A stretch of DNA of 64,000 nt. It comes from a virus. Taxonomy: Duplodnaviria > Heunggongvirae > Uroviricota > Caudoviricetes. A program made the position numbers. The stretch lies in the IMG/VR virus record IMGVR_UViG_2703718787_000017. The stretch is one strand, 5' to 3'. Below, one piece after another: positions 33,001 to 36,000 of the stretch (within the stretch, counting starts at the first letter, position 1; each line of letters opens with the position of its first letter).

Positions 33001-36000
33001 CCGTAGGTCGAGTGAGTACGGGATTTGTAATGGAAACCAAACAGTTGCAGTGGGAAGGTTCTACGTTCAGGGGAGTCCCAGCCTTCAAAGGTAGAGGCAT
33101 AAACTGGCAGTGGGCTTATCACTTCATCTTTTTCCAGTTCCCAGGTACGGGCAATTTCCGCCAGCTTGCTGGAATAAATTTCAATCTTACCGGAAGGTGT
33201 TTTAAGTGGATTTGCCTCGGGGTCGTCACGAAATGCTTTGTAGGCGACAAAATGACCATTGGGATCTTTACGCTTATAGATACCCATTTTTTTCAGTTCG
33301 TCGTAAGACGGTAACGCCGGATCTTTGGCAAGCATTTTGGCGTACAGATGTTGTAACCATTGTTCCTGCGTGCGACCTTCAGTGAACTTTTGATAGACGT
33401 CAGGTCCAAGACGTTTCGCGACTTCACTCAGGATCCAGTAAATCGGTTTGCGTTCGAATTTTTCGCTGGTGACAGGCTGGAGGAAAATGAGATATCCCAT
33501 GTTACCGGCGTAGTCGTTAGGAATAATATCTTCCTGCTCAACGGTCATCAGGTCTGGCAGCAGAATGTCGGCATATTTTGCCGATGAGGTCATAAAGTTT
33601 TCGATGACCACAATCATTTCGCATTTCGATTCGTCCTGCAGAATTTCATGCGTTTTGTTGATGTCAGAATGCTGATTAACGAGGGTATTTCCCGCGTAGT
33701 TCCAGATGAACTCCATTGTCAGACGGATGGATGGACTTGAAGTAGTTGACTCAATGCTACTTAAGGTCCTGATATGACTGACATTAACCATGATAATACT
33801 GTATGTCCATCCAGTTCTTTCTCTGGGTCTCCCTATCTGTATCAGCAAGTCTGCACCTCAAGTCCTGACACAAGGCTGACACAAATCAATATACTCAGCG
33901 TAGCTAAGCCTCAGTTAGTCCGTAGAGCCAATGGTCGATATACTATCCGCTTCAGACTCAAGGGACAGACCATCCCGTTTCTTTCAGTATCGACCCGAAG
34001 CACAGACAGGAGAGTAGCCACAATGCGTCAGAGAGAGCTTGCAGCCACAGCTAAGACATTCCTACTAGACAAGCCTGAAGTTTCGCTACAGGAGCTTACA
34101 GAGCACCTCCGGTCTATGGCTGAGCAGTTCCTGACAGACGCCAGTGATGACTACTGGAATGGACTTGAGGTCGCTACTCTGGTGGACGAGAAGTCCAACC
34201 TGAAGGAGCTAGCCGCTACGCAAGCCTTGAGTCTGGACCAGCAGAAGGGCATAAGGTTAGCGCTTGAAGTCCTGACCGCAGCACAGCAGAGGGTAGACAC
34301 TGGTGATGCCTCTGGTCTGATTAAGCTGATTGATGATAATAACCATACTGATTACTCAACTATAGGCGACTATACGTCCATTCTGAAGAATGAGCAGGGG
34401 GATAGACCAGCAGTTTTCACACAGGTTACTGCTCCTTGCAGTCACAGCGAGCGTCAGCCATCTGTGGTTTTTTCAAGCCTAGTGTCCTCGCTGCTGGCTG
34501 AGAAGGTCCAGACCCTGAAGTCCTCCAGCTACAAGGACCTGTCGTCCTCACTGAATACCGTCTCTCGGTTCTTACCTGAAGACATGGACCTGATGTCCCG
34601 CTCTGAGTGGCTGGCTGTCAGGGACTCTATGCTTGCTTCTGAGGTGAGACCATCGACAATCAACAAGCTGCTGACCAAAGCGAAGATGTGTCTCGATTAT
34701 GGCCTGATGAATGGGCAACTTGAGGGCCGCAACCCTATTGAACGGATGAAGCTGACCAAGGATATCGACTCCAAGCGCAGAGCGTTCACAGACGAGGAGC
34801 TGGATGGACTTCTTGTCCGGGTAGAGGCTGAGTATCAGTTCACACGACATACCGCTCACACGACCTCTGAGGCTCGCAGGTGGGCGACTCTGGTCTCTGT
34901 GGTCACTGGCGCTCGGTCTGCTGAGGTCTGCCACCTGACTAAACGTGACATTGTAACCTTGGACAATGGACTGGTCTGTATCGACATCAATGAAGATGGG
35001 GGCGGGAAGTCCGTAAAGAACAAGCATTCAGTCCGACTTGTACCGCTGACCGATGGCGCTTATGGGTTTGACCTGAAGTCCTTCCTCGAATGGGTAGACA
35101 TGCAGCCTGACGAGGGTCCTCTCTTCGGGATGACTCCAAGCGCATACTCTAGCTGGTTTAACTCAAGGGTCCTCACAGAGGCTCTCCCAGACGCTGAGAA
35201 CGTCTCTCTACACAGTCTGAGACATTGGCTGGCGACCCGGATGAAAGAGCGTGGAGTCAATCTGGTGGACGCTCAGGGCATCTTAGGTCACAGCAGTCAG
35301 TCCATTACGTATGACCTGTACGGGAAAGGACATGCAGTTGGTAGGCTGGCTGATGTGCTGAAGACAGCTTTACTTTAAGTAGGAAGACCCAAGGTGTAGA
35401 CCATATACGGCTTGATGGTTGAACCTTGGGTCGCTGAAGTCTGACTGAAGTTAGGGAGGGTGATAATAATCATAATCCCTCCTGACTATAGGCCCACTGG
35501 TTCGCCTTCGGCTGTCCGACTCTAAGTCTGTATGTGGTCTTATTTAAACTGGTTCCCTAACTCCAGTACTCCAAATTCCTATGGTCTCCTCTTGACATTC
35601 CTGTTTAACTGTGAGTCGCCTCTGGTCTCTCTTTATATATACTTCCTTAATTCCTGAGGCGTCTTTAGTCCTTGACATTCGGTCCAACCTGTGAGTCACA
35701 TCCGGTCCTCCCTCTATATATATACTTCCTTAATTCCTAGGGTCGCCTTAATCCTTGACATCCAGTCCAACCTGTGAGTCACATCCTGTCGCTAGCAAGC
35801 TAGCTGTCGCGCTACTGTATGCATCACCAGTGGTGGACTTGATTATCACTATAGGGGAACCAACTAATTCAACTACAGGAGATACTCTATGGCACGACCA
35901 ATCGCAACTCACGACAACACGTTCACCAAAGCCTACTTGCAGCAGCACTGCGGGGACCTGCTGTCATTCGATGGTCAGGGCGACCTGAGTGGTTGGCTGG

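Follow-up and report, generated by a model that had tools for sequence, protein, structure and literature searches.

The 64,000-nt stretch analysed here (the window; all coordinates are window positions) was taken from IMG/VR record IMGVR_UViG_2703718787_000017. It is Escherichia coli chromosome and carries a 6,497-bp island that interrupts ynfE, leaving gene segments at 32682-33848 and 40248-41705. A 12-bp core, TTGACTCAATGC, marks both boundaries of the island (33746 and 40243), and all six island genes lie on the + strand. These encode a tyrosine integrase (33774/34002-35378), orf122 (35889-36257), an AP2/HNH-like protein (36771-37910), orf70 (37910-38122), the coiled-coil protein orf185 (38187-38744) and orf332 (38810-39808). 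The subject of this work is a + strand array of three direct repeats (35591-35804), spaced 80 and 83 bp apart, that lies in the gap separating the stop codon of the integrase gene (35378) from the start of orf122 (35889), the first gene after it. A preliminary description of the stretch compared this array with the tandem strong early promoters of T7-group phages (A1-A3), which are used by host RNA polymerase (RNAP), and took this to support a T7-like ancestry of the element; integrase or regulator binding was its alternative.

The three ~80-bp repeats were borne out. CTTGACAT was located at 35591, 35671 and 35754 (+ strand) and nowhere else in the window, with TGTGAGTC 19 nt after each occurrence (35610, 35690 and 35773 only). 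A repeat search returned a three-copy family with a 37-nt core (73% and 68% identity to copy 1; spacing 80 and 83) and a two-copy family with an 82-nt unit (85% identity), and Tandem Repeats Finder gave a period of 83 with 2.0 copies (87% matches, score 252). Every unit contains an A box, TTGACAT-N13-TGAGTCA, and units 1 and 2 additionally contain a 26-nt AT/pyrimidine-rich B box, giving the order A-B-A-B-A. The first A box (35592..35618, +) consists of TTGACAT (35592-35598), a 13-nt spacer and TGAGTCG (35612-35618), and the B box that follows it (35630..35655, +; TCTTTATATATACTTCCTTAATTCCT) is AT-rich and then pyrimidine-rich and includes the -10-like hexamer TATACT. The second A box (35672..35698, +), TTGACAT-N13-TGAGTCA, contains an 11-bp palindrome (TGTGAGTCACA) and precedes the second B box (35713..35738, +; TCTATATATATACTTCCTTAATTCCT), and the third (35755..35781, +) stands without a following B box. 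The wording of the motifs required correction, as copy 1 reads AACTGTGAGTC rather than AACCTGTGAGTC, and the string exactly common to copies 1 and 2 is TATATATACTTCCTTAATTCCT, preceded by CTCTT in copy 1 and CTCTA in copy 2. The palindrome said to end the third copy, GCTAGCAAGCTAGC, is indeed present (35791-35804), but its GCTAGC is part of an 18-nt indel (35786..35804, no strand assigned) seen in only 3/15 related loci (the window, L001 and L004; such labels denote individual sequences in our comparison), and the palindrome is therefore not integral to the array. Folding of the array RNA was no better than that of shuffled sequences (z = -1.6 for the + strand, +0.2 for the - strand), and Rfam returned no structured-RNA match anywhere in the island.

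Related islands were found in 311/5,426 complete E. coli genomes, and 120 of these 311 carried the array with orf122 (77 at a coverage of at least 80%). Among GTDB species representatives and IMG/VR records, the array motif was confined to E. coli/Shigella. Searches against phage records gave no match to the array even at E <= 10, no GenBank phage carried it, and the motif was absent from the genomes of phages K1F and phiYIO1-1. A 16-mer from the B box had 45 IMG/VR matches, by a rough estimate about chance level. Across 53 loci, the array was present if and only if orf122 was downstream (14/14 loci versus 0/12 with alternative first genes). Neither the type of middle gene (AP2/HNH, KilA-N or others) nor the choice between the two junction variants described below was associated with it. 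The array, the phage-type promoter behind it and orf122 thus constitute one exchangeable cassette.

Close relatives (n = 15 loci) had three copies of the repeat in 12 cases and two in the remainder (L005, L031 and L016), which look like recombinants between copies 2 and 3. TTGACA was invariant in copies 1 and 2 of all 15 loci, and in copy 3 it was GTGACA in 3/12 three-copy relatives. Diversity among these close relatives was too low to detect selection. In the diverged relatives L075 and L076 the third codon positions of orf122 were 60% and 51% identical to the window, respectively, and the array had the order A-B-A. Here, TTGACAT was retained at 7/7 positions and TGAGTCA at 6-7/7; the A-box spacer was always 13 nt long with a sequence identity of only 3-9/13; and the B box was identical at 23-25/26 positions (24-25/26 relative to the first B box of the window), compared to 2-8/11 for the A-B linker. 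Retention of the half-boxes, their spacing and the B box while third positions were only 51-60% identical indicates that the unit is under purifying selection. By this comparison, selection acts on a pair of short half-boxes at a fixed distance and on a long B box, and A-B-A, as in the diverged relatives, is the ancestral form. The more distant L077 has another inverted repeat, CTCAGGG-N17-CCCTGAG, at the equivalent place beside a B-like box. Judged from this pattern of conservation and linkage, the boxes are a functional, conserved and cassette-specific cis-element.

It is quite unlikely, in our assessment, that the triplication is a functionless by-product in which one A-B-A unit does the work and an extra A-B arose through unequal crossing-over in a slippage-prone spacer. 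Such an origin would agree with copy numbers of two or three among near-identical islands, with the A-B-A-only state of the diverged relatives, and with copy 3, which tolerates a -35 change and is followed by the 18-nt indel. It would also agree with the behaviour of an adjacent, unrelated 44-bp unit, which ranges from one to six copies in sister islands. Yet this explanation addresses copy number only, the boxes being clearly constrained, and three copies are the majority state. The 44-bp unit (GTCTTATTTAAACTGG..., GTCTTATTTAAACTGGTTCCCTAACTCAGGTCCTCCAACTTGGT) is single-copy in the window (35536..35582, +) and forms 2-6 tandem copies in sister islands without an A/B array (e.g., L019 1894-2157, L007 6150-6285). 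Behind the tandem units, the sister islands have two unusual promoters of phage type that end in CACCTTAGRAGAG.

We then considered whether the perfect TTGACA hexamers at 35592, 35672 and 35755 represent host promoters. If they were plain tandem sigma-70 promoters, host RNAP would start at each hexamer after injection, express orf122 and help the DNA to enter the cell. The invariance of copies 1 and 2 would suit such a role, and since the island genes and the junction mimic described below point in the same direction, rightward host transcription would be compatible with transcription-driven entry. The best position weight matrix (PWM) total, 8.8, was at the 99.97th percentile of the window. 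Re-initiation at the array is also plausible given a 10-bp-stem hairpin ~160 bp upstream (35386..35432, +), directly 3' of the integrase stop codon, which is a possible terminator without a T-run. However, no -10 element accompanies the hexamers. A sigma-70 consensus scan found no promoter using them, and the PWM totals of the three units (6.5, 8.8 and 8.8) were driven wholly by the perfect -35. The candidate -10 hexamers 16-18 bp downstream (TCGCCT, TCACAT and GTCACA) had -10 sub-scores of -1.35, 1.0 and 1.0, compared to 3.5-6.4 for the annotated T7/T3 A1-A3 promoters in the same PWM (totals 11.1-12.9), and at that distance no array hexamer (TAnnnT) had A-11/T-7. Nor did the consensus scan or the PWM detect a sigma-70 promoter inside the array on the minus strand. 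The expected -10 position is instead occupied by TGAGTCA, with no A-11 in any register, and so sigma-70 recognition cannot explain the conservation of this half-box, which equals that of TTGACA.

Comparison with genuine early regions pointed the same way. Local alignment scores of the array to the early promoter regions of T7, T3 and K1F were no better than chance, being reached by 33/200, 163/200 and 45/200 shuffles, respectively, and blastn-short found no array match in nt 400-1100 of K1F or phiYIO1-1. The array is also in the wrong place, as it lies behind the integrase gene, ~1.85 kb from the left end that resembles a phage terminal repeat (TR; 33816-33845), rather than at a leading end. 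T7 virions deliver ~850 bp without transcription, and the array is beyond this distance. Plausible int promoters were located at 33769 and 33865. The tolerated GTGACA of copy 3 likewise counts against host promoters. Hence, the tandem A1-A3-like promoters of the preliminary description were not upheld. The array does not consist of canonical sigma-70 promoters, it is unlikely to contain copies of T7 A1-A3-type early promoters, and host initiation at each TTGACA is itself unlikely.

Other known signals were likewise rejected. For alternative sigma factors (sigma-32, sigma-E, sigma-28 and sigma-54) and E. coli regulators (CRP, FNR, LexA, DnaA, IHF, PhoB, FadR, ArcA and NarL), comparison by eye with consensus sequences gave only partial matches that were not found in all copies or relatives (including a FadR-like 10/12 match in copy 2 only). 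The B box as an anti-Shine-Dalgarno (SD) sequence masking the orf122 ribosome site was dismissed as the predicted SD partners differ between islands. The array does not consist of phage-RNAP promoters either: the repeats have no match to the 23-nt consensus of K1F specificity (CTAAACTATCACTATAGGGA), real matches lying outside them, and the class II phage-RNAP pause signal ATCTGTT is not in the repeats, a good one being at 33836 instead.

With respect to the alternative of regulator or integrase binding, the first part fitted the repeats better. TGACACAA repeats beside both att ends (33865-33886 and 40207-40237) are, from their position, probable arm-type sites of the integrase, which makes integrase binding to the array unlikely. 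The left half of the A box has TGACA in common with TGACACAA, which might hint at integrase or excisionase sites, but nothing beyond TGACA is common to the two. The array is ~1.85 kb from attL with the whole int gene between, and it is linked to orf122, not to int (third-position diversity 0.17 versus 0-0.03 in the array). The repeats were accordingly rejected as arm-type sites, and we regard integrase/excisionase binding there as highly improbable.

Affinity of the element with the T7 group was nevertheless evident, although it came from features other than the repeats. A K1F-type phage RNAP promoter (35837..35859, +; ACTTGATTATCACTATAGGGGAA, +1 at 35854) lies between the array and orf122 and is invariant in the 15 loci, and nt 35834-35855 match K1F phiOR at 20/22 positions. 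A second such promoter (36266-36288, +; CCTAAACTATCACTATAGGGAAG) is an exact match from -16 to +4 to the consensus, which was extracted from the K1F-like phage phiYIO1-1. Four occurrences of ACTATAGG were counted, always on the + strand of the island, against 0.71 expected for the whole window. The second promoter is directly followed by a 480-bp non-coding stretch (36289-36770), conserved in island variants and without an Rfam match, that contains direct repeats (CTTCGGGCAGGAC / CTTAGGGCAGGAC) at 36557 and 36633 and could be a leader RNA or an origin. Sister islands contain an exact T3 promoter, AATTAACCCTCACTAAAGGGAGA (L073, 2145-2167 and 2755-2777), or an exact T7 promoter core, CGACTCACTATAGGGAGA (L077, ~595-620), and so different islands seem tuned to different T7-family helpers.

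Parts of the island also resemble the packaging junction of these phages. A flank at 40071-40101 matches the sequence immediately left of the K1F right TR at 30/31 positions and is found in 178 phage records, mostly Kayfunavirus-type (92-97% identity among the matches listed); in aligned phage right ends it falls within an all but invariant, junction-spanning block of >50 nt. Homology continues into the first ~60 nt of the TR (flank and TR start together, 40047-40162; score 67 versus 21 +/- 2.4 for shuffles), and the cut-site bases have diverged from the phage. At the other end of the island, 33816-33845 matches the end of the K1F TR, including an ATCTGT pause-type signal (score 39 versus 18.1 +/- 2.3; 0/500 shuffles), and is conserved in all island variants. 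As the flank with the TR start and the TR end lie on opposite sides of the att core, this mimic of a concatemer junction would be whole only in the excised circle. In T7-type phages, the junction is where the polymerase pauses, and this pausing recruits gp18/gp19 (PMC3276506). Two variants of the flank were distinguished (40047-40110 versus L022/L027/L008), a Kayfunavirus-like V1 with GATGAGTTTTGGACCAAAAGTT and a V2 with TTTCTGACAGAAAAATGTGAATGACC followed by TTCCCCCATAG. Within the TR-like segment, a run of 12 G (40166-40177) corresponds to 4-5 G in related islands, marking a slippage-prone tract. Just before the junction mimic is a 27-codon hydrophobic ORF with a strong ribosome site (39972-40055; MDLHKVYLIVFLLKLVLVVVLTVRVRL), in a position like that of phage gene 19.5.

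A third phage-type feature is a hairpin (35453..35484, +), GGGAGGG-TGATAATAATCATAAT-CCCTCC, the sequence of which is that of the hairpin that Kayfunavirus phages have between phiOR and their gene 19.5. It had zero diversity among 11 islands, versus up to 0.17 at int third positions. The GGAGGG...CCCTCC hairpin downstream of phiOR, conserved between phages and island, is at 38985-39008 in K1F (L067) and at 40046-40077 in phiYIO1-1 (L003), but the phiYIO1-1 version has its 16-nt loop in the orientation opposite to that of K1F and the island. Within the int coding sequence, 34425-34448 is identical at 24/24 nt to nt 68-91 of the phiYIO1-1 TR, an inserted segment when compared to K1F and another five Kayfunavirus phages, and this identity suggests past recombination between island and phage.

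Given these phage-end motifs, the array itself might be a packaging or recombination element derived from a phage TR, supplying extra terminase sites or patches of homology that favour the island. In reverse complement, K1F TR nt 80-99 agree with copy 2 (35671-35690) at 18/20 positions, the best match of this copy in the K1F genome (score 15, against 11 for the next; tile mean 7.4, sd 1.2), GGTCCTTGAC also occurs ~50 nt left of the phage junction, and the remainder of the intergenic region is a mosaic of motifs known from phage ends. On the other hand, the match involves one of three copies in the orientation opposite to the junction mimic, and the array occurs with both V1 and V2 and so does not co-vary with packaging specificity. 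Taken with the absence of the motif from K1F and phiYIO1-1, this makes a packaging role very unlikely.

The main rival is a replication origin, with the A boxes acting as iteron-like sites around an AT-rich unwinding B box and an island protein or the helper's T7-type replisome copying the excised circle. The A-B-A layout, with repeats flanking an AT-rich segment near a small gene, resembles iteron-type and Staphylococcus aureus pathogenicity island (SaPI)-type origins. T7-primase-type TGGTC sites are present at ~35535, 35583 and 35622, with a weak promoter-like TGACTATAGGCC upstream (35483-35494). The kit for T7 replication and packaging of a plasmid comprises a phage origin/promoter, a pac signal and a TR (PMC13236587, citing Chung and Hinkle 1990); T7-type phagemids need all three, and the island has recognisable mimics of the last two. 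Despite this, no initiator, primase or helicase gene is recognisable in the island, orf122 included. Furthermore, the consensus phage promoters are directed away from the array, and the AT-rich origin segment of T7 is downstream of its promoters. The B box is moderately AT-rich only (0.60-0.67 in 30-nt windows), and its pyrimidine half, ACTTCCTTAATTCCT, is kept base for base, a constraint not required of an unwinding element. We therefore consider an origin at the array rather unlikely.

The island as a whole has an integrase and att sites, a small size and no full set of virion or replication genes, as expected of a satellite. The element is no T7-like prophage, being a 6.5-kb island of six genes, and from its sequence looks like an undescribed satellite of virulent K1F-like (Kayfunavirus) phages. 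Six copies (6 x 6,497 = 38,982 bp) are close in length to K1F without one TR (39,526 bp). Metagenome contigs of 6.5-6.9 kb keep ynfE flanks and have no terminal overlap, and so give no evidence of free circular copies. In Foldseek searches against the PDB, essentially all of the top 50 hits listed for orf332 were HK97-fold capsid/encapsulin shell proteins, with weak E values (4e-3 to 0.3) and a poor model (pLDDT, the predicted local distance difference test, 45.6). Two distant homologues have C-terminal Ig-like domains typical of virion surface proteins, and on these structural grounds orf332 is a probable capsid gene. The coiled-coil orf185 lies 5' of it, and a hairpin with a 9-bp stem, a UUCG loop and a U-rich tail lies 3' (39887-39915). 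The gene order of T7 is 9-10-Tphi, and by analogy the orf185-orf332-hairpin arrangement resembles this series of scaffold, capsid and terminator. The slot after the second promoter (36771-37910) is variable, holding the AP2/HNH-endonuclease-like gene here and KilA-N or other small ORFs elsewhere, and may be a position for interference or defence cargo. Outside the island, a prophage-like region left of ynfF (~1-29000) includes a 2,806-aa ORF (16759-25179). Its counterpart in a related strain carries the annotation LPD5 domain protein and is accompanied by Hok/Gef, Lom, antirepressor and Ea22-like genes.

A broader version of the satellite interpretation would have helper RNAP switch the island on, packaging at a junction reconstituted by excision, sister islands tuned to T3- and T7-type helpers, and the array with orf122 as a private origin or packaging/recognition module that captures the helper replisome or terminase. 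This combination is possible but, as a whole, doubtful. The reading we prefer, with low confidence, is that the array is a protein-bound operator/promoter region controlling phage-independent expression of the orf122 cassette. The array is an iterated composite cis-element, with A boxes (TTGACAY and TGAGTCA exactly 13 nt apart) in alternation with a B box. A DNA-binding protein with sequence specificity would recognise the A boxes, and the most economical candidate for it is orf122, the cassette's own product. The A boxes would bracket and control the AT-rich B box, source of the sole good -10-like hexamers, and together the boxes would set phage-independent transcription by host RNAP into orf122. 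This control would be circumvented at the K1F-type promoter, 55-75 bp downstream, once a helper phage supplied its polymerase.

Several observations weigh against an operator/promoter role. The predicted structure of orf122 is helical and weakly resembles DNA-binding folds, but the fold matches are below any safe threshold. Neither orf122 nor orf332 had an informative match in Pfam, NCBIfam, PADLOC or PDB sequences, and in PHROGs orf122 matched phrog_23123, a family with no assigned function (E = 1.1e-8), and orf332 none. No good -35 was found by PWM 16-18 bp 5' of the B-box -10-like hexamers, which makes the promoter output conjecture. The distance from the third A box to the phage promoter varies by 18 nt, and so there is no fixed phasing between them. 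Linkage of the array to orf122 could also be explained by physical adjacency, and nucleotide diversity (pi) of the array in close islands (0-0.027) was not clearly below that of orf122 synonymous sites (0.0235).

The A and B boxes are the sole non-coding part of the island's kit without a phage counterpart, and therefore the place to seek its own regulatory or replication logic. If orf122 binds them, protein and site would represent a new DNA-binding family and its target; if they are promoters, they would test the idea that satellites in T7-type virions need host promoters for DNA entry. T7-family phages are textbook strictly lytic phages that are widely used in therapy, and K1F targets K1-capsulated pathogenic E. 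coli. An island that copies helper promoters and a packaging junction could act as an interference system against phages and, as a mobile element, also be spread by those used in therapy. No description of a satellite of T7-like phages was found in the searched literature, the nearest concept being the PICMI of Vibrio (PMC10803314).

Compared to the A1-A3 promoters of the T7 group, the array is similar in having three rightward TTGACA units in tandem at ~80-125 bp spacing, 5' of the first gene that precedes genes dependent on phage polymerase, in an element of T7-type organisation. It differs in that no -10 follows at 16-18 bp, in its lack of similarity to the early regions of T7, T3 and K1F, in lying behind an integrase gene, and in the TGAGTCA half-box and 26-nt B box, which have no counterpart there. 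Another comparison is with operator arrays of autoregulated phage and plasmid genes and with iteron-type origins 5' of rep genes; the array likewise has bipartite repeats at fixed spacing 5' of a small co-travelling gene with an AT-rich segment between. Unlike in these systems, no repressor or Rep family is recognisable in the island, and the repeat unit is long (80-83 bp) and present in only two or three copies. The combination of phage-polymerase promoters, a copy of the junction flank, a TR-like segment and the pause-site-like ATCTGT, the cis kit with which a T7-type phage can replicate and package a small circle, parallels the T7 transducing plasmids and phagemids (Chung and Hinkle 1990, cited in PMC13236587). 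In contrast to those constructs, the island is natural, chromosomally integrated and has its own integrase, and its junction mimic is split by att, with diverged cut-site bases. In common with PICMI, it is a ~6-kb integrase island of minimal gene content with a probable virulent helper (PMC10803314); the length of six copies, 38,982 bp, is compatible with multimer packaging, and its probable own capsid gene recalls the cf-PICIs, phage-inducible chromosomal islands that form capsids. It differs from PICMI and PICIs in lacking fis-linked integration, an AlpA/primase core and genes for a terminase or portal, and its induction logic apparently runs through promoters for the helper's RNA polymerase.

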